A stretch of 59,264 nucleotides of DNA, counting the filler, from Squatina squatina (taxonomy: Eukaryota): the NCBI GenBank assembly GCA_031763465.1. It is 3 parts of 3 records of this genome, joined end to end, with 100 filler letters (N's around TTAATTAATTAA, not from the genome) between each part and the next. Parts side by side here need not be neighbours in the genome. Positions count along the whole stretch, not along the records: positions 1 to 29,105 come from JARFOE010000194.1; 2 more parts are not named here. The stretch is one strand, 5' to 3'. Under the pieces are notes generated by a model. The model was not told where the DNA came from. It saw only the letters and a program-made list of their open reading frames with translations, and did no database searches. Made by a program: the position numbers and the translations under genes. This document shows, piece by piece, positions 2,885 to 59,264 of this stretch; the stretch's first letter is position 1; the number at the start of each line of letters is the position of its first letter.

Positions 2885-3068
2885 CTANNNNNNNNNNNNN
2901 NNNNNNNNNNNNNNNNNNNNNNNNNNNNNNNNNNNNNNNNNNNNNNNNNNNNNNNNNNNNNNNNNNNNNNNNNNNNNNNNNNNNNNNAAAGAACATTGTA
3001 AAAAGAAAATGAAAATGGTTGTAACTGAACCAGAGCATTCAACTTAATCTAGCAAAACAAAATCATAC

Positions 3069-3216
3069 CTAACTGTGAGAGTAATCCAATAATTTTCAGA
3101 GTTAGTGTCACTTTTATGTTAGGATCACCAACAAGTTCCACAAGACTGTTCAGACATTCACTTGGTAAACTTTGATTTGTTGCAAATACCATTACTGCTT
3201 TCATTCCACAAATTAC
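3069..3216 (-). CDS. CIP2A: CIP2A exon near the N terminus (likely exon 2)
   Basis: 148-nt exon encoding [49 protein letters not shown], versus recalled human [49 protein letters not shown]. Confidence 0.93.
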
Positions 3217-6833: not shown

Positions 6834-7442
6834 NNNNNNNNNNNNNNNNNNNNNNNNNNNNNNNNNNNNNNNNNNNNNNNNNNNNNNNNNNNNNNNNNNN
6901 NNNNNNNNNNNNNNNNNNNNNNNNNNNNNNNNNCGGTTATGTTAGAAATCCCCACCTCAGTGCTCCCTCACAATGTGGCAATAATAAGTGATAATTTCCT
7001 TCCATGTTATATGAACTCACTGAAACTATTATCACAATTTTGAGCTAGAGAATAAAATATCATCTATTATTTTCTGGATTACTCACAATATTGTTATCCT
7101 TCAATGTGGGTTTTACCTTGGCAACACACAACAAGTTGGTAATCCTCATCACAGTTAGAGCTACTGCTGGCAAACATGTACCCCAAATCAAATCAAATCA
7201 TGCTATGAAGCTCATAATCTGCCTAAAAATAAATAAATCAATTTTAAAATAATAGCAATGAGTATCCTGGAGTAATGTCAATGTTGAAATTTCTTCTCTG
7301 TTTTTTGGTGGCTGTTATAAACTGCTTGAGCGTAACTTGTGTGGTTATGATGTGAAGTGAACTTCCTGATTGAAATGCTGTCTGCTCCCAGGCATCCCTT
7401 CAGTTGGTAATGCTTACAGCTCTGTTGCTCCTTCTATGGCAG

Positions 7443-7539
7443 GTCACTGTGGAATAAGGACAAAGCTAAACTAGAAGATGTAACTGCAAAAAACATTGTA
7501 AAATTAGTAGAGGCAACAAAGCGGGCGGTAGCTGCTGAG
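7443..7539 (+). CDS. DZIP3: DZIP3 exon, coiled coil
   Basis: Encodes (R)SLWNKDKAKLEDVTAKNIVKLVEATKRAVAAE, versus recalled human RSQWEMEKHNLESTMKTYVSKLNAETSRALTAE; gtaagt donor. Confidence 0.85.
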
Positions 7540-7749
7540 GTAAGTGTCATTGCTAATCTTAGAGCAGATAAGAAATTGTTTGAATTATTGGGTGAATATT
7601 GGAGGTGGTTTAATATCATGGGTATATATCATGTCCATTTGTCTCTGCANNNNNNNNNNNNNNNNNNNNNNNNNNNNNNNNNNNNNNNNNNNNNNNNNNN
7701 NNNNNNNNNNNNNNNNNNNNNNNNNNNNNNNNNNNNNNNNNNNNNNNNN

Positions 7750-8170
7750 CTTCCCTTCCCAATCATGGTAATGTGTCTAGTCTATATCCAAATTATTTCC
7801 TCTTTGAAGGCGTCCCATTGTTCAATTACTAGTTTGCCTCCCAATTTTTGATTCCAATCCACCTGGGCCAGATTCCTTTAACTCACTGAAGTCAACCCTC
7901 CTCCCCTCAAGTATTTTATACTTGATTGTATCTTGCTCTTTTATATAATTGTTGTAAACCTGATGATATTATGATCACTGTTGCCCAGATCCTCTCCCAC
8001 TGAAACATGTTCCACTTGCCCCACATCATTTCTCAGAACTGGATCCAGCAATGGGCTAGAAACACACTGCTCAAGAAAGTCCTCTTGTACTTATTTCAGG
8101 AATTCCTTCTCCTCTTTGTCCCTTACACTGTTGCTATCCCAGTCTATGTTAGGATAATTGAAATCTGCAG
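7750..8170 (-). mobile_element. Degraded CR1-like LINE ORF2 fragment
   Basis: Resembles the reverse strand of elasmobranch CR1 ORF2; intronic; boundaries approximate. Confidence 0.5.
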
Positions 8171-8218
8171 TTCTTGCATCTTTATTTAATTTGTAATAAT
8201 TTGGACATTTTTTCTTAG

Positions 8219-8320
8219 AATCAGTTTGATGAACAGATAAGTTTGTTGAAGAGTGGAACTAAACTGAGCATGCGTCCACAAATAAAGATCCCACCACCAC
8301 CTCCACATCCTGATGCAGTA
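8219..8320 (+). CDS. DZIP3: DZIP3 exon
   Basis: Encodes NQFDEQISLLKSGTKLSMRPQIKIPPPPPHPDAV, versus recalled human TQYNEQINKVKQGFALSTLPPVQLPPPPPSPEIL. Confidence 0.88.
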
Positions 8321-8474
8321 GTACGTTCTTTCTACAATAATTCCTTTACAACACATTGAATTCACTGTCTGGATTAATTTTCCTCTTTGAATGATTTTCT
8401 ATTTCTGTAAAGATGTGCAGTCAAAGCTTTCATGAAACCTCAAGTAGTAAGTCTTTGGTTTCTTTTCATTTTAG

Positions 8475-8612
8475 ATGAAGCATTTTTTGGAACAGCATTT
8501 ACAGGCAAAAGCAAACAATGTGCAGGCTGGATTTGGGCAGCCCAAGTCTGCGAATGGCAGATCCACTACTGTCACAGGACAGCCAGAGGCTCCACCAGCT
8601 GGACAGGAACAG
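8475..8612 (+). CDS. DZIP3: DZIP3 exon, low-complexity linker
   Basis: 138-nt phase 0-0 exon MKHFLEQHLQAK...APPAGQEQ, in frame with the previous exon; the human protein continues MQQFL at this point. Confidence 0.75.
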
Positions 8613-9291
8613 GTGAGAACTAATAAATTGTATTAGACCAACGATAGAGACCAGTGACTCCTAGACTAAACAGGGCCTACATTAAACAGTGGGACATACG
8701 ATATCCAGTTTGGTGATGTTACTTGCAGTGGTTTGGTNNNNNNNNNNNNNNNNNNNNNNNNNNNNNNNNNNNNNNNNNNNNNNNNNNNNNNNNNNNNNNN
8801 NNNNNNNNNNNNNNNNNNNNNNNNNNNNNNNNNNNNNNNNNNNNNNNNNNNNNNNNNNNNNNNNNNNNNNNNNNNNNNNNNNNNNNNNNNNNNNNNNNNN
8901 NNNNNNNNNNNNNNNNNNNNNNNNNNNNNNNNNNNNNNNNNNNNNNNNNNNNNNNNNNNNNNNNNNNNNNNNNNNNNNNNNNNNNNNNNNNNNNNNNNNN
9001 NNNNNNNNNNNNNNNNNNNNNNNNNNNNNNNNNNNNNNNNNNNNNNNNNNNNNNNNNNNNNNNNNNNNNNNNNNNNNNNNNNNNNNNNNNNNNNNNNNNN
9101 NNNNNNNNNNNNNNNNNNNNNNNNNNNNNNNNNNNNNNNNNNNNNNNNNNNNNNNNNNNNNNNNNNNNNNNNNNNNNNNNNNNNNNNNNNNNNNNNNNNN
9201 NNNNNNNNNNNNNNNNNNNNNNNNNNNNNNNNNNNNNNNNNNNNNNNNNNNNNNNNNNNNNNNNNNNNNNNNNNNNNNNNNNNNNNNNNNG

Positions 9292-9455
9292 ATTCAAGAG
9301 ACTACCCCAGTACCTGACCAACCCGCATCCCAGCGGTCCATGCAAACTGGCAGAGGAGCAGCAGTGGCGACAGCAACAAATGTAGGAATCCGTGGAAAGA
9401 ACAGCTTTGAGAGAATTATGGAGAAACTTTCGACATCCTATCCACAGTTTACCAG
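9292..9455 (+). CDS. DZIP3: DZIP3 exon (5' boundary next to a gap)
   Basis: Ends NSFERIMEKLSTSYPQFTR, versus recalled human MNWERITDRLKTAFPQQTR (region shared by TTC3 and DZIP3). Confidence 0.85.
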
Positions 9456-9638
9456 GTTACTATCAGTGGCTGAAATTCTTTGTTCACAGGAGTGCATCCA
9501 ATAGTAGCTTGTTTTCTCCAATCAAACTTTTGTTTCTTTGGTGAACATGTGATTAGGAGCAAGCAATTGATGCATTGATTTTTGTTTTATATCTGAGGAA
9601 CATGTAAAATGAAAAGACTATTTTTGTTTGCATTATAG

Positions 9639-9759
9639 GGGTTCATTAACAGACTTCTTGAAAGAAGTAAGGCTGTCCAATGGTGGATCCCTCTCGGGAT
9701 TATCCTATGATGAAATTGTTAACAAAGTAGCACGATTAGTGGAATCAAAACTCTCCGAG
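9639..9759 (+). CDS. DZIP3: DZIP3 exon
   Basis: Encodes GSLTDFLKEVRLSNGGSLSGLSYDEIVNKVARLVESK, versus recalled human KELTDFLRKLKDAYGKSLSELTFDEIVCKISQFIDPK. Confidence 0.9.
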
Positions 9760-9883
9760 GTAAATCTGAGCAATTACTGCTTTTGTAAAAAATTAGGAGT
9801 AAGCAATTGGCCTTTGTTGTCTTATGAAGAGAATTATTTTCATACCGATTTAAATATTTTCTTTTTGACTTTCTGCATTTCAG

Positions 9884-9979
9884 AGCAGTAACAGTGGTCA
9901 ACATAATCCCTCTCAGCAATCCGCTTGGCGTTCATCTAGGCAGCAGGAACTAAAGTCATGGGAAGGAGCCAGGGCGCTG
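9884..9979 (+). CDS. DZIP3: DZIP3 exon preceding the RING exon (RING itself not assembled)
   Basis: Encodes SSNSGQHNPSQQSAWRSSRQQELKSWEGARAL, versus recalled human ..PAWRPLTSQGPATWEGASNP; phase 0-0. Confidence 0.8.
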
Positions 9980-12003: not shown

Positions 12004-12573
12004 NNNNNNNNNNNNNNNNNNNNNNNNNNNNNNNNNNNNNNNNNNNNNNNNNNNNNNNNNNNNNNNNNNNNNNNNNNNNNNNNNNNNNNNNNNNNNNNNN
12101 NNNCCTCCCGATGTAACAAATCGTGCTGCTTTGTCCTCTGTCCTGCAACTGGGGAATGCCGATTTGCGGGGCTGAGTAAAATATACGCTCCTCTGTTAGT
12201 TTTACAGGCTTGAAGCTGCCATAAAAGATCTACAGGGTGGGCAGCAGATTTATAGGTGTGAGCAGAGCAGTCTTTTTAAAGGGACACAAACAATAAACTC
12301 TAAATTATAAATAAAACAACAGGAAACTTAACAAATCAAATCAAAAATATTGTTGCCTGTGACGACAATGCACTCCAGTCCCTTCAGTGCCCACCAGTCG
12401 TGCAAGGTCTCAAGCATACCAGCAGAAACCACATGCTCCTTCTCCAGTGCCAACAGGTAAGGCCGTGGAAAGAGGCAGGCTGCCAGTGCGACCACCCCCA
12501 TGGATCGCGTGGGATCATGGATGCTAGCAACAGCTCAAGTCATTGTTTTTTCCTTTGCCTTTCATCCCCACAG

Positions 12574-12945
12574 AGATTCCAGTAAAACAATATCCTTCAT
12601 ATCTAAGTGTTGAACCTGGGCATTCAGCCACCATCATTTGTGCTTTTGAACTTGATGTCAGGATTGGAAACGAGATTGACGTTTACTGGGTTAAACAAGT
12701 AAATCAAAGTGAAACTCATGATGTACTCCACATTTCTTCAAAGAGATTTCCCACACTGGATACAAATACAATTTGCAATGACTCTGAAGGGTCCTTCAGT
12801 TTCTCTGGGAATCTAAGACGAGGTCTAATTGTTCTAGAATTTAAAAACATTCAAAAAACAGACTTTGGCTTGTACATCTGCAAAGTAACAAGAACTATAC
12901 CCCCTCTACCGATGGAAGGAAGAGGGAGTGGTACTAACATCGTTG
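12574..12945 (+). CDS. Ig V-set domain exon, germline-joined VJ type (CD28/CTLA4/TMIGD2/NKp30-like)
   Basis: 372-nt phase 1-1 exon with canonical V landmarks: VKQYP, SATIIC, VYW, DFGLYIC, FG loop KVTRTIPPLP and a J-like G strand GRGSGTNIV; cag acceptor, gtaag donor. Confidence 0.88.
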
Positions 12946-13477
12946 GTAAGGTTCATTTTTTTCCTTTGTCATTATTAGCATTTGTATTCATTAAAATGAA
13001 TGATGACTAGGTTAGGTAATGGCATCCTTTTGTCACTAGTGGAGAATAATATTGTTATGAGAAGCCTGTAACAGCAGTTGGAATTCCCATGTTAATGTGA
13101 AAATGTTTAGATGTAATGTGCCCCAAACATTTTGCCTCATTCTTAATCATAGAAAATCAGAGTTAATGTATTGCTACTTGTTATACAATACTACCGGAAA
13201 GCTAATGGTGGCATGGAGCAACTCAGACAGTAACTTTTGGATTTCTGCATTTAACCACACATCTGCCCTCACCTGAATTTGCTGTACCATTTGTGCACAA
13301 ATAAAGGTGAGCATTATTAGCCTCACCATTATTTTGACAGCAAATTATGGGCCAATGTATCAACCCACTGGAAAAACTCATATCTCACTTATTTGGCAGT
13401 GTGTTGATTCCTTATGATTTTCATATTGTAACATCCCTAGTCAACCTGCCAATAATATTAGGAAACTATAGGTAGGA

Positions 13478-14300
13478 TTATAGAATAGTACAGCACAGAA
13501 GGAGGCCATTCAGCCCATTGAGTCTTCACTGGCTCTTTCGAAGATCAATCCAGTTAATCTCACTCCTCCGCTCTTTCCCCATGTCCCTACAGTTTTTTTT
13601 CCTTCAAGTATTTATCCAATTCCCTTTTGAAGGCCATTATTGACTTTGTATCCACCACCCTATGAAGCAGTGCATTTCAATTCTAACCACTCATTGTAAA
13701 GAAGTTTTTCCTCATGTCGCCTCTGGTTCTTTTGTGAATCACGTTAAATCTGTACCCTCTTGTTATCAACCCTTCAGCCATTGGAAACAGTTTCTCTTTA
13801 TTTACTTTAGCTAAACCCTTCATGATGTTAAACACCTCTATCAAATCTCCTCTTAGCCTTCATTGCTCCAAGGTGACAACCCCAGCTTCTCCAGTCTATC
13901 CACACAACTATATTCCCTCATCCCTGGAACCATTCGAGTAAATCTCTTCTGTACCCTCTCCAAAACTTTCACATCCTTCCGAAAGTGTGGTGCCTAGAAT
14001 TGGACACAACACTCCAGCTGGGGCCAAACTAGCATCTTATATAGGTTTAGCATAACTTCCTGCCTTTTGNNNNNNNNNNNNNNNNNNNNNNNNNNNNNNN
14101 NNNNNNNNNNNNNNNNNNNNNNNNNNNNNNNNNNNNNNNNNNNNNNNNNNNNNNNNNNNNNNNNNNNNNCCAGTGCCTTGTATAGTTGCAGCAAGACTTC
14201 CTTACCTCTATACTCCAACCCCCTTGAAATAAAGGCCAACATTCCACTAGCCTTCCCTATTACCTGCTGCACTTGTGTGTTAGCTTTCTGTGTTTCATGC
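13478..14300 (-). mobile_element. CR1-clade LINE (HER1-like), RT C terminus and 3' tail
   Basis: Minus-strand text QVIGKASGMLAFISRGLEYRGKEVLLQLYKAL and LNLYKMLVWPQLECCVQF; 3' tail GGGCTGAATGGCCTCCTTCTGTGCTGTA; two pieces separated by a gap. Confidence 0.88.
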
Positions 14301-17583: not shown

Positions 17584-17697
17584 ATGTATTTGCCAACTGC
17601 CATATTGGAGTGTGGGGATTGTTGGGTGTTACTGTTTTAGCTCTGATGACTTCTCTTGTGATAAATTTTATCTACTGGACAGCAAACCGTCAAAAAG
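17584..17697 (+). CDS. TRAT1: TRAT1 (TRIM) transmembrane exon
   Basis: Phase 1-1 exon (D)VFANCHIGVWGLLGVTVLALMTSLVINFIYWTANRQK, versus recalled human GISGCPFFLWGLLALLGLALVISLIFNISHY; keeps the dimerising Cys, WGL and SL.xN; syntenic position between DZIP3 and MORC1. Confidence 0.82.
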
Positions 17698-20390: not shown

Positions 20391-20557
20391 GGCAACATAC
20401 TCCAAATTGATGGAANNNNNNNNNNNNNNNNNNNNNNNNNNNNNNNNNNNNNNNNNNNNNNNNNNNNNNNNNNNNNNNNNNNNNNNNNNNNNNNNNNNNN
20501 NNNNNNNNNNNNNNNAACTAGACATGCACATTTAAAATAATTCAGTTAAATCCTCAC

Positions 20558-21819
20558 CTCGCCATCTTGTTGGCTTCTCGGAGAATAAGATCCACCCATT
20601 CGTATGCGGTAATTGTGTCCTTGCAATTCAGTATTCAGAAGCCACATTTCTTGACTACTTTGCCCGGAACTAGAAGACTCCGGGAAGGTGCGGAACCTCT
20701 TTAATGGTAATCGAGACGTTTCCCTCGACTGGTCAATACAGGCAGCTCGTTTTCTTGATAGCTGGGATGGGGAGTTTGTATCAGATGTCACTGATGTTAT
20801 AGTTCTACCAGGGACAGAACAGACATTCAATATATTGGGAAGCTTCATAATCGGTGAAATGGGGAATGAACTACGAACTAAGTTTTGATACACCAATTCA
20901 AATGCATCTGTTTCTTTTACTTGAGTTTTAAATGGGCTCTGTGTAGAACGGAACACGGTTGGAACAGAACTCACAACAGACGAAATTGAATGTCTCCGAT
21001 TATTTCTTTGGCCAGTACAGGAAATGTTACTTGAGTACAAAAGCATTTGACATGGTGACCTGTTGAAATTTGCTACTACAGAATCCGGTTTTGTCACTGT
21101 ACTATTGTTCAATGGATATCGTTCTGTATTCGNNNNNNNNNNNNNNNNNNNNNNNNNNNNNNNNNNNNNNNNNNNNNNNNNNNNNNNNNNNNNNNNNNNN
21201 NNNNNNNNNNAGGAGTTAGTTGAGGTATTCAGCTGGGGCAAAGGTGATCCATTCAAAGAGGTTACATTCCAAGCTGAAGCTTTCCTTATGGTGCAGCAAT
21301 TTGTAACTGGTACTGGACTTTTTGGGTTACAAGGGCTTAGCAGTAGTGGCTGGGAGTAACTTGCATCATTGTATGAATTTCTAAACTTCAAAGTTTCGAT
21401 TTCAGATGATTTTGAATTTGTTTGCAGCACAGACTTGGAATCGTCAGCAGCAGGCATGGAACAAGTTGTCTCTGGGTTATCTTGTGTAGTTTGGTATCTT
21501 TTCAGAGAACAAACTTTTCTATTCAGATGTTTGGTTCCAGCCTTTAGTTCAATANNNNNNNNNNGCCGTCGATAGTGTTTTATTAACCTTGAGGCAGCCT
21601 GTGCCTTATAGCTATGGCCAAGCAAGTTACTCATCGAAGCTAGCATACTTGGATAGATATCAATAAGTGTAGTATCACTTAAACCAGATGAAGTATCAGA
21701 ATGGCTTTCCATGGGAGCTTCGTCGACATAAGTTTCTCCCAAATCCAATACAGCACTTCTGCTTTTCTCAAACTTGAGCAAAGAAGAAAGTTCTTTGCTA
21801 CCAGGTACACAAAGTGGCC
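20558..21819 (-). CDS. HJURP: HJURP-like CENP-A chaperone, large central exon
   Basis: About 1.26-kb open frame through two small gaps, Ser/Pro-rich; contains SDTTLIDIYPSMLASMSNLL, versus recalled human HJURP mid-domain NVTISDLYAGMLHSMSRLL, and ETDAFELVYQNL, resembling the HJURP C-terminal repeat; GAG|gtgagg donor. Confidence 0.7.
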
Positions 21820-21919: not shown

Positions 21920-22009
21920 TGAACCTTCTCTCCCTGGATAAAGATCTTCATGCGAGGGTCAATGTATAATATTGCAGCATAGGCCCGAAAGGAATAGCGT
22001 TCTGGTTGG
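21920..22009 (-). CDS. MORC1: MORC1 exon, GHKL/S5 region (runs into a gap)
   Basis: [29 protein letters not shown] carries the MORC1/2 SFRAY..LY..P.M.IFI motif. Confidence 0.85.
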
Positions 22010-23222
22010 CTGAAACATAACATTGTTGATATAAGTTTTGATCTTTATAATCACAATATTGCAGAACACCAGTAGTAGAAATTCAGATTTAAAATATTGT
22101 GCATTTAAGTAGGTTACTTACAAAGAAACCACTAAAAAGGGTATTGATATAAATATATACAAATACGCAGCACCTTAAATCGCCTGCCCTTGCATTTTTG
22201 GAGGAAAGAAACATGACTTGTATATCAGAATTGAGATGTTTATGTATTTTGCAACTTCAGCATTATTCTCATTATAATTTTGCAACCACTATTCTCCATC
22301 ATTAGCTGTTTGTTCACCAATACTGCCAAATCGCCAAGACCTTATAGCAGTGATATATTAAGAAGGCAAGTCAAATAAGACCTTGTACAGATTATTTCAA
22401 ACAGTAACTTATATTCAGTGGCTAGAATCATAAGGGGTACAAGCTAAACCACAAATATCTGCCATAAAAGGAGAGTGTGCCCTCATCACATAATGGATAT
22501 TTGGGGACTCCAAATTAGNNNNNNNNNNNNNNNNNNNNNNNNNNNNNNNNNNNNNNNNNNNNNNNNNNNNNNNNNNNNNNNNNNNNNNNNNNNNNNNNNN
22601 NNNNNNNNNNNNNNNNNNATCACAAACTCCAGTGGATCCAGGACCCTTAGGTAAGTACGTAAACAAAATTGCAATCGGAGGCAGCCGCACGCAGGAAGCC
22701 TCTGATCGCAATTTCAGGCCCATTATTACCACCTACTTTGAATATACCCACCCATTTTGGGGCAGGCTTATCCACTATCTACTGTCACTTCCAGTGGAAA
22801 ATCTTGGCAGTGGTAAAAAAGCTCCACAACTGATTCCACCCCCACCAACCCCACCAGTAATGCCTAGTGCCTAAAATCGGTAGCAACAATAAGGAAAATC
22901 CGGGCTCATATCTCACTCGATAACAAAAAAAAATCTATATGATGCAAGGAATAGTAAATATTTACTGTAACATTCAATTGATTTTCATGCTTCAGCTGAC
23001 AGACAAACCCAGCAACCTTCACTCTTTTGGTTGAAAACAATGAAGATCTCAACTAAACTACCTTATTGTTTACTACCAGCCATCCTGGGTCCTCTGTAGC
23101 AGAATCACAGGTAGCCATTATTCAGCATTTATGAACTGGCTGTTGGTCTCAAACTATCCAAGTACAACACTTCAATGTTGACAAACTAGTTAAGTGTTTA
23201 TATTTTCCATTTTATAACTTAC

Positions 23223-26787: not shown

Positions 26788-26978
26788 TCAATTATTCAGA
26801 GTGTCCTTAATGTGATTTCTCTAGTAGCACTAAATAAAATAATTAGCTACACCAGCCTCTTCCCTAATTCCTTTTCACTATGAATATAAGTGGGGACACA
26901 ATCAATGTATTTTTATACATGTATTCATACCCAATGAAAATAGATAGTTAGAAATAACTTTAAGTGTAACTAACTTAC

Positions 26979-27250
26979 CGTCTTCCTGCAGTAAGCCCCA
27001 ACCAGTAATGTAGCATTTTCGATTTGCAGGAAACACATGTAATGCTGATGGAAGACACACTGGTTGGATGTATTTATTGTACGTTACAGGTGCTGAAAGT
27101 TCAAGCAAGGCTATATCATAATCCATTGTGGCATTATCGAATTGCTCATGAATTATCAGCCGTTTGATTACTCGCATTTCTACAACAGTTTCTGAAAATG
27201 TTTGGGAATGTACTCCAATGTACGCTTTCCATAACATTCGATCTGAGTAC
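26979..27250 (-). CDS. Matriptase-family (ST14/TMPRSS6/TMPRSS7/TMPRSS9-like) serine protease exon containing the catalytic Asp
   Basis: Encodes (R)YSDRMLWKAYIGVH..DYDIALLELSAPV..IQPVCLPSALHVFP..CYITGWG; canonical splice sites; DIALLEL trypsin motif. Confidence 0.9.
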
Positions 27251-27359
27251 CTGGCATTANNNNNNNNNNNNNNNNNNNNNNNNNNNNNNNNNNNNNNNNN
27301 NNNNNNNNNNNNNNNNNNNNNNNNNNNNNNNNNNNNNNNNNNNNNNNNNNNNNNNNNNN

Positions 27360-27515
27360 CTGGAACTCCCTCCCTAACAGCACTGTGGGATTTCCTTCAT
27401 CACAAGGACTGCAGCAGTTCAAGAAGACGGCTCATCACCACCTTCTCAAGGGCAACTAGGGATGGGCAATAAACGTCAGCGACGCCCACATCCCAGGAAC
27501 GAATAAAAAAAAAGA
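27360..27515 (+). mobile_element. LINE 3' tail (second family)
   Basis: Similar to 24990-25155. Confidence 0.8.
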
Positions 27516-34197: not shown

Positions 34198-34355
34198 CCA
34201 CACGTGGATTTGACTTTGCCATTTCAAGTACAGCAATTTCATGTATGATGTCAGCTTTACAATCCAGACCCCGACGTCGCTTCTTCAGAAACTTCGCTGC
34301 ATATTCTTTCTCAGTAGCTTTTTCTATACATTTTTTAACTACAGCAAATTTGCCT
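34198..34355 (-). CDS. STK17B: STK17B kinase N-lobe exon (runs into a gap)
   Basis: Encodes [44 protein letters not shown], with the catalytic Lys and the DRAK basic loop. Confidence 0.93.
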
Positions 34356-35104
34356 CTGCAACAGAGAAAAAGTGTTAACGTAATAGAGTGAACTGTAACC
34401 ACGCAATTTGTTTTATACACTGAGCATTAAAATTTCCTGACTTATAAATCAGTGCTACCTTTGCACTTTTTAAGCTTCATGTGCAACAGATACTCCCAAT
34501 CAATATCAAACTTGCTTTAAACTGGTGTGCAGCACGTGAATCAAACGCAAAATTGTTGAAATATGGATCACATCAGAGGTGCTATGAACATATAAAACCA
34601 TGAAAGATTGCATCTGCACTGGTGTCTCAACAAACTGCATCATAAAGTGGTAGAAAGAGGACTGGCAAATGAACTTCTCAATCTCAGCTGTCAAATGAAA
34701 CTGCCCAACCATCGCAAAATTCTTAGAGGGGTGAGGGAGGTTCACTTCCATAACTAACAGTTCCAGTTCTCTTTCCTCACCTNNNNNNNNNNNNNNNNNN
34801 NNNNNNNNNNNNNNNNNNNNNNNNNNNNNNNNNNNNNNNNNNNNNNNNNNNNNNNNNNNNNNNNNNNNNNNNNNNNNNNNNNAGTTGATGTAAAGCCAAG
34901 AGTAGAGCTACCCAGCCTAGACCCAGCCTTAGTCTAGTGCTGGAGAGTTTGTTATTTAATACACACAGCTGTTTCAGGTTGCTGAGTCATCTCAAGCCAT
35001 TTCCAGCTCCACCCCAGAAACCCACGCACCACGCATAGAAGTAACCCACGACGCCTAACTACAAAAGGACTTGGCCTCTCAACCCAAGGGTCAAATACAT
35101 AAAA

Positions 35105-45986: not shown

Positions 45987-46102
45987 CAGACGGAGCCGTA
46001 AGCCCCTGAGCCGACGGGGGAGAGGTTCTGGTATCTCTCGGGCACTTCCCAGATTGTCTTATTCAACTCCTGCTTGTAAAAGTGCGGCCTGACTTCTGAC
46101 AT
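45987..46102 (-). CDS. MAPK14: p38 alpha MAP kinase, first coding exon
   Basis: [38 protein letters not shown], versus recalled human [38 protein letters not shown]; CpG-rich context; gtacgt donor. Confidence 0.95.
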
Positions 46103-46917
46103 TGTGTGNNNNNNNNNNNNNNNNNNNNNNNNNNNNNNNNNNNNNNNNNNNNNNNNNNNNNNNNNNNNNNNNNNNNNNNNNNNNNNNNNNNNNNNNNNNN
46201 NNNNNNNNATCAATCACTTTACAGATTCCAATGGGCTATTTATCCAAAAATAACCGTTAAAAATTGTTAATGTTCTGGTTAAGGATCCCACTTTATAAAC
46301 TTTACCACAACACCCTAAATTATGAATAAAGCATTACATTTATTATTAACCTATAGTACACATCATTTCGGGAAGACAGAAGCAAACATAGTCAACTGGA
46401 CCAATATACAACAATCTCATCATCTCAGACAAAAGAAGCCAAAACAGAATTTCCTCTTAAAAAAAAATGGAAACTTAAGTGTTTCATATTAAGTTCAGAA
46501 ATTGCAAAAGAAACCCAGTTTAAACGATTACTTCAGGATTATAGTTTCAATTTTAAAAAATTCTGAAAGGTTACTGAACTACATAACCTTCAAAACTGCA
46601 ATAATCAATGATCTTATCTAATTGTCTGACTAGTCTTTCATGATGTTGTTTCCAAGTGAAACAGAAGATCTGCTATAAGCATACACCTTGGAATTAAGGG
46701 ACAGATTTCATACGGACCATGTATACACCAGCAATTAACTACTTTTCCATTGGCCAGTGTTTCTTCCAAGCACCTCCAGGATAGCACGAGTGGGGAGACG
46801 GTAGAGTGTTCAGTTCTTGTATAGAAAGAAAATATTATCTGATCTTAATCCTTGTTGAATAGTTTTGCTAACTATATTGGTCCTCTTAGGTTCTTCGTCA
46901 AGTTTGGACTGCTGGTG

Positions 46918-47849: not shown

Positions 47850-49087
47850 CTGCAAAACATAAGAGGGAATTTGGTTAGAACTGAAAGAGTCTTATCCAAT
47901 GCATTTAAAATGCATTCTTTAGATGTTAACAAATCATATAAAATCTGTATATGTATTTGACAGCATTTTCATATGAATTCTCATACATGTGTAGGCTGTT
48001 TTTATGTATTACGTTTGCAACACCTGAGAGTGTAAAGAAGCATCTAAAACACTAAATCACACACGGTGCAGCCTCACTTCTATTACTAATGCTGCTGACT
48101 CGTAACACTTGTTAACAGTCAACAACACAAGTGAGACACACTGAAGAATTATATCTTCGTCATACTGGCTGGGTTATAACTGCCTGTTGCAATGTTGCTT
48201 CAAGCTTCAGCGGAAACTGACGTTCNNNNNNNNNNNNNNNNNNNNNNNNNNNNNNNNNNNNNNNNNNNNNNNNNNNNNNNNNNNNNNNNNNNNNNNNNNN
48301 NNNNNNNNNNNNNNNNNNNNNNNNNCTAAGGACGAGATACCACTTGTGCAAAGCAAATGGCAGAGAGGAGTAAATCGATCTGGAAATTTGTAACTCACAG
48401 CGTATCTCTTAATGTCCTGAACCTGCTGGCTGATGTGTGCATTAATAATGGTGTGTGCCATTAACATGTTCCCTGCTTGCCATATTGGGGACTTTGTAGG
48501 CCAGTTAGCACCCAAAAAATGGCCATTGCCTGGATGAATTTATCGTCAAAAACCTGCAGAATAGGAGACACCGAGTTGCAATATTTTATTTTAGTTTGTT
48601 CTCTGCTTTTCATTGAACATTTGATTTCACATTTCGTCCCAGATAAACAATTGCTTGGCATTGTGTTTTATGAACTTTAAATTTAATTTTTCAATAAAAC
48701 TTCTATAAATGGGTGACGGACTTTTGAGATGTCTTTCTTGATTGATTCTTCATACAATCGTGTCTTTCTTTTCTCCCTCCCCTTATTTACTGATACATCC
48801 TGTGCCACCAAACCAGTGACTACTCTGACTGGCACGTTGGCATCGGAAACAGTATCAGATCAGTTAGACTGAAACCACTTTAAATAGGCGATCTTGAGGC
48901 TTCCAGATCATTCGTTACTCGCTGTCTCAGCCTGTCTTTATTTCTCTGAACAAGTTGCACATCTTCAAATCTTTGAACCACAACTGTGTCACATCTGTCG
49001 ACGAACTAAGGGAAATAGCTGAACCTCTTCTTTCACCAACTTTTCAAATTTAATTTGAAGCGAGAGCAAATTTGCAACAGAACCAAA

Positions 49088-49578
49088 ATGCCCACTGAAG
49101 TCACTGAGCAGCAGGACTTTTCCTATTCGTATCATGTCTATCCTTCCTATTTTGACGATCCTGACTATTTCGACGACACAAATGGAGAAGTCTGTTCTTA
49201 TGAGAACTTACCTTTTGTGAACATTTCTATCTCAGTTCTCTATTACCTGATCTTCATCGCTGGGTCTTTGGGTAATATGTTCGTCATCTTAGTAATGGTC
49301 TTCAAAGAGAAGAGGAGGAGGAGACTGGTGGACACCTTTGTGATCAACCTGGCTTTTGCAGACCTGGTCTTTGTCTTCACCTTGCCTTTTTGGGCAGCCT
49401 CGGCCAGCAACAACCACCAGTGGACCTTCGGCAGTGAGTTCTGCAAAATCAGCAGCTACATCATTGCTGTCAACAGGTATTCCAGCATCTTCTTCCTTAC
49501 CTGTATGAGCATAGACCGATATCTAGCCATCGTTAAGTTGCTGGACTTCAAGCATATCAGAACCCAGAAATACGCCAT
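49088..49578 (+). CDS. GPR25: GPR25, class A chemoattractant-like GPCR (N terminus to intracellular loop 2, then a gap)
   Basis: TM1 GN, RRLVDTFV, NLA.ADL, TLPFW, W.FG..FCK and DRYLAIVKLL match recalled GPR25 (RRLVDTFV..DRYLAVVKLL); next to INAVA as in human 1q32. Confidence 0.88.
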
Positions 49579-50204
49579 NNNNNNNNNNNNNNNNNNNNNN
49601 NNNNNNNNNNNNNNNNNNNNNNNNNNNNNNNNNNNNNNNNNNNNNNNNNNNNNNNNNNNNNNNNNNNNNNNNNNNNNNGGAAATTGGAAAACTGGGATAA
49701 ACCCAAATGAATGAGAATTGGGCCAATTCAGAATAATCTGTCTGTTTGAACTAAAGGCTATGATTTGCGGGATTATGAACTAATAGTTGGATCCAAGGGG
49801 GTAAATTTTTGTCTTCACCACATGGGCAGTAAACTAGTGGAGCGGATCGCCTGCCCGTTATGGAACTCTGCCAACTTTCATTCCATTAATTTCATGCAAT
49901 GGAGACAAAAATGTACCCCCAAGTTTCATGAATCCGAGTCAGCACAACGTCTAGACCTAGATCGTGATCAGAATCAGAATCTCAGGCTGCAATTCCCCAA
50001 GGGCTGCTGAGACTAATTGCACCATGCCTACAGTTTGCTGGCCATGACTTTGCCTATCCTTACAGCCACGTTGGTGCAAATTGTTCCTGGAGCTCATTAA
50101 ATTTCCACTGGAGCTTATTACAACTGGTCAGAATTGCCCCATGGTCCATCAAGACACAAAAAGGAAAATACATTAAAATATTTTCAACTATAAAAAAAAT
50201 GAAA

Positions 50205-58575: not shown

Positions 58576-59038
58576 TAACTACCAAGCTGAGTTANNNNNN
58601 NNNNNNNNNNNNNNNNNNNNNNNNNNNNNNNNNNNNNNNNNNNNNNNNNNNNNNNNNNNNNNNNNNNNNNNNNNNNNNNNNNNNNNNNNNNNNNCAAGTT
58701 TTGAGCTCTTTTACTGACTATAACATAGGTTCCTAAAGGTAAATAATATGGAAATCATTGTGCGCAGCTAAGAACTAACTATGGACGGGTGAAAGTGGCA
58801 GGAGAGTAGGAAGGCAGAGGAGTAGTGATAGGATTGAGAGGATAAAGTATTTGTGATTGGGAGAAATAAATGTGGTATAACTAGGGCCAGGAAAGGGTGG
58901 AGAGAGGAGAGAAGAGCCCAAGAGAAAAAAATAGACTAGTGTTCCGGAATTGGCAAAAATAACTTGACACATAAAGACGTTATCGTGCTGACTTGTGTAA
59001 TATTATCTTCATTTGTAAATGTAGTATTCCATTCACAG

Positions 59039-59163
59039 GGTCAGACAGTCCTCAGTCACCGACGAAAGATCGGTATCGTTCTGTCATTTCACGTAAGCAA
59101 ATGCTGGAAGAAACACTGGAGGCTTATTTGGATGAACTGAAAAAACTGTGTTTACGCGAATCT
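59039..59163 (+). CDS. INAVA: INAVA exon, CUPID coiled-coil region
   Basis: GSDSPQSPTKDR..KQMLEETLEAYLDELKKLCLRES, versus recalled human GPDSPVSPMKE..QRALEARLEACLEELRRLCLREA; in phase with the previous exon. Confidence 0.93.
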
Positions 59164-59264
59164 GTGAGTACTAGTAGACGATACTCTCTGGGTTCTGATT
59201 TCAGTGTTTTACAATTATACATATGGTTGCTGTGGCAAACATTTGATTAGCATCCAATTCTGTA

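Follow-up and report, generated by a model that had tools for sequence, protein, structure and literature searches.

Results and Discussion

A single exon coding for a V-type immunoglobulin (Ig) domain, located between DZIP3-like and TRAT1-like sequences in Squatina squatina (assembly GCA_031763465.1), raises the question of whether it belongs to a described member of the CD28 family, to the NKp30 or antigen-receptor relatives, or to a lineage of its own. The window analysed is the whole stretch of 59,264 nucleotides, and its relevant features are collected in Table 1. The original prediction considered the exon an orphan germline-joined VJ domain of the CD28/NKp30 type.

Table 1. Features of the V gene locus (positions along the window)
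Feature	Position	Strand	Characteristics
CIP2A (KIAA1524) N-terminal exon	3052..3216	-	Pfam CIP2A_N, E 1.9e-12
TTC3-type helical-domain exons, presumably DZIP3 by position beside CIP2A	7411..9888	+	Pfam TTC3, E 1.5e-6; TTC3_9th, E 5e-14
Polypyrimidine tract and CAG splice acceptor	12546..12573	+	
V-set Ig exon	12574..12945	+	Phase 1-1; entire domain including G strand; Pfam, AlphaFold, orthologue identity
GTAAGG splice donor	12946..12951	+	
TRAT1 transmembrane exon	17584..17697	+	Phase 1-1; 69% identity to Heptranchias TRAT1-like (P0099), E 1.7e-8
MORC-family exon, presumably MORC1 by position	21922..22041	-	PDB MORC2, E 1.5e-9

The V-set exon

The V-set Ig exon is intact and in phase 1 at both ends, and its codons begin at position 12576 rather than at its first nucleotide. 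The 123-amino acid product includes Cys22, Trp38 and Cys102, with a spacing of 80 between the two cysteines, an extra Cys67, the sequons NQS and NDS, an FG loop with the sequence CKVTRTIPPLP (the IPPLP portion is IPPPP in other sharks), the G strand GRGSGTNIV, and the C-terminal end CKVTRTIPPLPMEGRGSGTNIV. Pfam identified a V-set domain (E 9e-11), and the AlphaFold model obtained with a 29-row alignment is a V-type sandwich with a pLDDT of 90 and a pTM of 0.84; this model was used instead of that from an 8-row alignment, which gave a pLDDT of 55. The splice sites, the reading frame and the Pfam match agree with the original prediction that one exon encodes a full V domain with a J-like G strand, and the cysteine spacing, extra cysteine, sequons, loop and strand that it listed are all present in the translation. 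Its statement that no recombination signal lies between V and the G strand also held, the sole match resembling a recombination signal sequence (RSS) overlying the splice acceptor.

This RSS-like match (positions 12569 to 12595, + strand) consists of a heptamer with 1 mismatch, an 11-base spacer and a nonamer with 2 mismatches, and no other was found in the window at the threshold used (1 in 53,715 bases). It was rejected as a true signal because of the 11-base spacer, its location on the wrong side of the exon and the alteration of the nonamer in relatives, and it was judged a chance occurrence, as by a rough estimate its frequency is near that expected by chance. The window includes just this one V exon, and comparison of profiles for the leader, stalk/transmembrane (TM) and tail exons with 2,974 six-frame pieces of the gapped window yielded no match (best E 0.17).

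Locus and assembly context

The window includes 50 runs of N and 39 pieces with a median length of 1,205 bases, and therefore can be considered a collapsed scaffold. About ten genes, mostly represented by few exons each, are packed into 59 kb, and the pieces are joined mainly by 100-N gaps. The V exon is on the piece spanning positions 12104 to 14069. Distances and gene order within the window hinge on the scaffolding, and the adjacency of the V exon and TRAT1 rests on this 39-piece scaffold. In Heptranchias, the one species in which a same-record check was made, the V-gene orthologue and TRAT1 are both on records of 83,457,822 bases, and these equal record lengths support linkage of the two genes in one long-record assembly.

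The predicted TRAT1 neighbour was identified downstream of the V exon. The exon there matched the Heptranchias TRAT1-like protein (one of six candidates), and a tblastn search with this protein gave one clear match, so that only one TRAT1 exon is found in the window; this exon was recognised by neither Pfam nor ESM Atlas. The idea that it is the TM exon of the V gene was rejected. Upstream, the predicted DZIP3 neighbour is presumably represented by the exons with TTC3-type helical domains, which are taken as DZIP3 from their position beside CIP2A; a pattern search of the window for the DZIP3 RING exon gave no match of note.

Other exons recognised by Pfam in the window code for a trypsin domain (26902-27396, - strand), a rhodopsin-family receptor (49019-49600, + strand) and a CUPID domain (58975-59247, + strand), which we take to be TMPRSS7-like, GPR15-like and FRMD4/INAVA-like, respectively. 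Two kinase exons read by eye, one DRAK/STK17-like (approximately 34200-34426, - strand) and one p38 MAPK-like (45990-46106, - strand), are presumably unexpected from the human 3q13 neighbourhood. Positions 20549 to 21817 (- strand) include Ser-rich open frames with no Pfam match, one stretch of which, we presume, resembles the middle region of HJURP. Hjurp is named in the legend to the Retnl neighbourhood in the available part of PMC4467842.

Orthologues

A search with the exon revealed proteins of horn shark, zebra shark and bamboo shark with 79-85% identity (3 of 108 candidates), to which that of whale shark was added. A representative search added the orthologues of elephant shark and softshell turtle, and a profile search those of Heptranchias, three more turtles, saltwater crocodile and kiwi (12 of 5,524 candidates). 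The orthologues come from 12 species (five sharks, elephant shark, four turtles, crocodile and kiwi) plus two further records, and the identity of the exon to the five shark orthologues is 79-89%, Heptranchias being the closest (89%). Ray, bony fish, amphibian, squamate and mammal orthologues were found neither among the 12 matches of the 5,524 candidates nor among 75 representatives, for 20 of which, plus P0003, the names were checked; both results are weak evidence of absence. The exon is thus not an orphan, as RefSeq/UniProt models exist under names that vary among "uncharacterized", "CD28 homolog", "CD28 antigen" (elephant shark) and "CTLA4-like", and the turtle, crocodile and kiwi orthologues extend the lineage beyond the cartilaginous fish to which it had been ascribed.

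The nine full-length orthologues (P0001-P0005, P0007, P0092, P0093 and P0096) are 211-245 residues long and consist of a leader, a single V domain, a stalk, an uncharged TM helix and a short tail; the TM and tail regions are known from these orthologues, the window giving the V exon alone. A C domain is absent from every orthologue. The search for a YxxM motif or a charged TM residue proposed with the original prediction was carried out on the orthologues: the tail YxxM is present in all ten checked, as [RGT][DE]S[MLS][IV]Y[EVM][DE]M with the context DSxIYxDM, and a charged TM residue in none of nine helices. The TM motif YxxxxT is found in all six chondrichthyans and in none of four sauropsids, and the FG-loop prolines P132-P133 are invariant in the eight alignment rows. 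The GxG of the G strand is confined to sharks, the corresponding sequence being GKANG in the chimaera and GSSNG in turtles. Since GxG is kept only in sharks, a tie to the origin of antigen receptors, for which the original prediction considered the exon relevant, is no stronger than for CTLA4.

Family assignment

A profile of five orthologues matched CTLA-4 first in the PDB (E 3e-8), followed by CD28 (5e-6). With a ten-row profile CTLA-4 (8e-9), sodium channel beta-2 (2e-8) and CD28 (4e-8) were close together, and an uncharacterised PDB entry with an MYPPPY loop scored above all three. The match to CTLA-4 is carried solely by the F-G strands, and it needs the family profile, as the single sequence gave weak antibody matches with CTLA-4 last (E 9e-4). 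Foldseek placed CTLA-4 first to third, with T-cell receptor (TCR) alpha chains close and with higher TM-scores, and a comparison by geometry only found TCR V-alpha closest (Z 16.6, rmsd 1.6, 108 residues aligned) and PD-1 at 13.7. CTLA-4, CD28 and NKp30 were not among the best 50 rows of the geometry comparison, and NKp30 was not among the PDB matches listed for the profile or Foldseek searches, which excludes nothing. ESM Atlas returned CTLA4-like, CD28 and IGSF6 clusters at 0.97. Since the V fold is generic, assignment to the family is based on the F-G motif, the TM helix and the tail.

As described in the available part of the 2024 survey (PMC11599192), CD28-family members have an IgV-TM-cytoplasmic structure with one V, a proline motif near CDR3, a tail tyrosine motif and conserved synteny. 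The one-V structure, the CDR3-proximal prolines and the tail motif are all found here, TM and tail being those of the orthologues, and the TM YxxxxT dimer motif, which not every family member has, is found in the chondrichthyans. Judged from sequence, the combination of a PPP FG loop, YxxxxT, YxxM and an uncharged TM helix is the anatomy of the CD28 family and not that of NKp30. The CD28 half of the proposed CD28/NKp30 type therefore stands for the single V domain, and the NK/NKp30 half does not, as none of the nine TM helices is charged.

Relation to the named members of the family

The CD28 family of jawed vertebrates includes nine members (Quiniou et al. 2024, PMC11599192, as available). 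The orthologue accessions, their CDR3 and tail motifs and DZIP3/TRAT1 are found neither in the text available from that survey nor in its nine supplements; a motif used as positive control was recovered from their CD28X alignment, so that the sequences there are searchable. In an unrooted V-domain tree of 22 chosen rows the orthologues form their own clade (96/93), as they do in an unrooted full-length tree of 18 rows (93/91), in both cases separate from CD28X and CD28H-like. Both trees were built without CD28, CTLA4, ICOS, PD-1 and NKp30, so that the phylogeny proposed with the original prediction is answered for CD28X and CD28H-like, and their group labels were assigned here from motifs, except for gar CD28X and caecilian TMIGD2. 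Constraining the chondrichthyan copies to group with shark CD28X was rejected (p-AU 0.0003). Zebra shark has both the V gene and a separate CD28X-type protein, and there are separate accessions for the named members in elephant shark and softshell turtle. The shark and sauropsid copies group together, and therefore the split predates the divergence of sharks and bony fish.

The lineage shares with CD28X a single V domain, the FG-loop PPP, YxxxxT in some species, a Y-x-D-M tail and a patchy range (sharks, turtles, crocodiles and birds, no mammals). On the other hand, the two proteins are 24% identical within zebra shark and belong to separate clades, the V domain is about 10 residues longer here, the tail has DSxIY where CD28X has QEY, with no EYEDM, and the neighbours are CIP2A, DZIP3 and TRAT1 rather than pudp/sts/anos1; unlike CD28X, the new lineage was not found in gar or sturgeons. 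With the CTLA-4/CD28/ICOS cluster and the three chondrichthyan co-orthologues it has in common the top profile and Foldseek matches, the F-strand GLYxCKV, PPP, YxxxxT and YxxM, but its loop is [RG][TL][IM]PPP instead of MYPPPY/xHPPP, it has no YxN or second Tyr motif, and it is a single gene outside the three-gene cluster, with other elephant shark accessions. Membership in this cluster is thus contradicted by the motif tables and accessions, the trees being without these genes. CD28H/TMIGD2 and CD28HL1-3 also have a single V domain and IPP in the FG loop, but the glutamate of EIP is missing here, the tail has YxxM and not YxN, YESF or an ITIM, and both clade and synteny are different. NKp30 (NCR3), UrIg and PRARP likewise have V and the G strand in one exon with no rearrangement; the new lineage differs in having no charged TM residue for an ITAM adaptor and no C1 domain, and it was not seen beside MHC genes. 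As for antigen-receptor V domains, the J consensus FGxGTxLxV is RGSGTNIV in the window, and there is no C domain.

The possibility raised with the original prediction that the gene is the orthologue of a described shark gene was thus not borne out for CD28/CTLA4, CD28H, CD28X or PD-1 by accession, motif and synteny, the trees covering CD28X and CD28H-like. No account of the gene was found in the literature, including the available parts of PMC6795676, PMC9857879, PMC12151841, PMC12512852 and PMC12227049, a search by locus identifiers found no papers (in both cases outside subscription papers), and six orthologue accessions are not in the supplement of PMC13262535. The gene may bear the name CD28 in the supplementary notes to the elephant shark genome (PMC3964593). 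The lineage is real, conserved and apparently undescribed, and is probably an unlisted tenth lineage of the CD28 family.

Variation among relatives

Cys67 is missing in all six chondrichthyan orthologues. All four related DNA runs (at most four samples from three studies; contig sets with genomic flanks) have Arg at Cys67 and Pro at Leu111, and therefore the extra cysteine and PPLP are substitutions or errors of this genome and not traits of the family. Both features of the original prediction are present in the sequence, but the cysteine is private to it and PPLP is PPPP in other sharks; the third FG-loop proline is replaced by Leu here and in one further orthologue record (P0010, PPL). The depth of the exon in the four runs equals that of unique flanks, which indicates a single copy in those relatives. 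Among the 18 differences listed between run X1 and the exon, nine codons are silent and eight residue-replacing, which fits purifying selection. No splice joint at the exon was among the joints shown in the four runs.

Proposed function and alternative explanations

We consider it likely that the exon codes for the single V ectodomain of a conserved receptor lineage of the CD28/CTLA4 family outside the nine published, which would bind a B7 ligand through the FG loop and co-stimulate through PI3K at its one YxxM. By analogy with the family (PMC11599192, as available), the FG-loop prolines would contact the V domain of a B7-family ligand. As in CD28-family receptors, the TM YxxxxT may pair two helices into a dimer (in chondrichthyans only), the YxxM, once phosphorylated on tyrosine, could bind PI3K p85, and expression would be expected in T cells. 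The tail has no YxN and therefore no GRB2 site, and it resembles those of ICOS and CD28X, so that a co-stimulator is likely. Least certain in this explanation is whether the signal activates or inhibits, activation being only slightly favoured.

The tyrosine of the CTLA-4 tail binds AP-2. The same gene could accordingly be CTLA-4-like, the tail IYVDM (near YVKM) driving AP-2 endocytosis and the receptor competing for B7 and dampening T cells while TRAT1 would assist in its trafficking, which we regard as a real but lesser possibility. CTLA-4 is the top PDB match by profile and Foldseek, the lone tyrosine motif comes with no YxN, and bony-fish CTLA4 tails have YVDM (PMC11599192, as available). 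However, the PDB match comes from the F-G strands only, and in the same survey YxDM is also found in ICOS and CD28X, where it is read as activating. As to TRAT1, in the available part of PMC12512852 it is reported to chaperone CTLA-4 in mouse cells, whereas its loss left CTLA-4 unaffected in human T cells. We consider it improbable that the gene is not a separate lineage but derives from a named member, CD28X or one of the CD28/CTLA4/ICOS cluster, as a translocated copy or co-orthologue. The motifs do match the CD28X pattern YxCx6PPPx4/5GxG plus YEDM given in the survey (PMC11599192, as available), the orthologues cluster with CD28X against the CD28H-like rows in the unrooted trees, and the elephant shark protein is labelled "CD28 antigen" in databases. 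Nevertheless, CD28X is recorded separately in both zebra shark and softshell turtle, the cluster genes are separate in elephant shark, the grouping of shark and sauropsid copies makes the split older than the shark-bony fish divergence, and the synteny markers of CD28X are pudp/sts/anos1/nlgn4x/pnpla4 (PMC11599192, as available).

That the exon in this species is a fragment which is decaying or out of place appears highly improbable: although Cys67 and Leu111 are changes at shark-conserved positions and the remaining exons are missing from a scaffolded draft, the frame is open, the splice sites are intact, identity to Heptranchias is high, PPL recurs in P0010, and TRAT1 is also reduced to one exon here, so that exon loss in gaps is general. 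In NKp30 a charged TM residue pairs with an ITAM adaptor. The least probable of these explanations is an activating NK-cell receptor similar to NKp30, or else a remnant of the VJ ancestor from which antigen receptors arose; the single V exon with its G strand, GxG in sharks and a fold nearest to TCR V-alpha would fit it, but the helices are uncharged and the tail has its own YxxM, GxG is lost in the chimaera and sauropsids with no F/W preceding it, and there is no C1 domain, unlike UrIg2 (PMC12227049, as available).

Implications

The preferred reading, a tenth lineage with representatives as distant as chimaera and kiwi, broadens the view of a larger early checkpoint repertoire in jawed vertebrates that was later pruned. 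It also implies that the elephant shark and horn shark entries named "CD28" and the turtle entries named "CTLA4-like" are not those genes, provides a receptor with which B7 ligands of sharks and reptiles can be tested, and, as the gene is next to TRAT1, opens the contested role of TRAT1 as a CTLA-4 chaperone to study in another receptor of the family. In mammals the neighbourhood has Retnl with Dzip3, Trat1, Kiaa1524, Myh15 and Hhla2 (PMC4467842, as available), and TRAT1 is among the teleost-lost genes in table IX.6 of the elephant shark genome paper (PMC3964593, as available). A broader scenario, which we consider speculative and rather unlikely, is that of a lost tenth arm of T-cell co-signalling, held for more than 400 million years in a cassette with the trafficking adaptor TRAT1 near the B7 ligand gene HHLA2/B7-H7. 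The receptor would then be a second, linked one for HHLA2/B7-H7 or a different B7 ligand encoded nearby. It would be what is left of an ancient receptor-adaptor-ligand linkage, and would have been lost in teleosts together with TRAT1, and also in mammals, where Retnl moved in.

Other sequences related to the family

Two smelt proteins (Osmerus mordax XP_067116649 and O. eperlanus LOC134007546) have IFPPP, GNG and QEYEDM and group with gar CD28X (97/90); the 2024 survey, in its available part, lists no CD28X in any teleost (PMC11599192). The bichir Polypterus senegalus protein XP_039599624, annotated as sodium channel beta-3-like, is missing from tables S2 and S4 of that survey and has no placement in our trees. 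It includes a single V domain with TSPPP and GNG, a TM region and several tail tyrosines, and is possibly another unlisted CD28-family gene.
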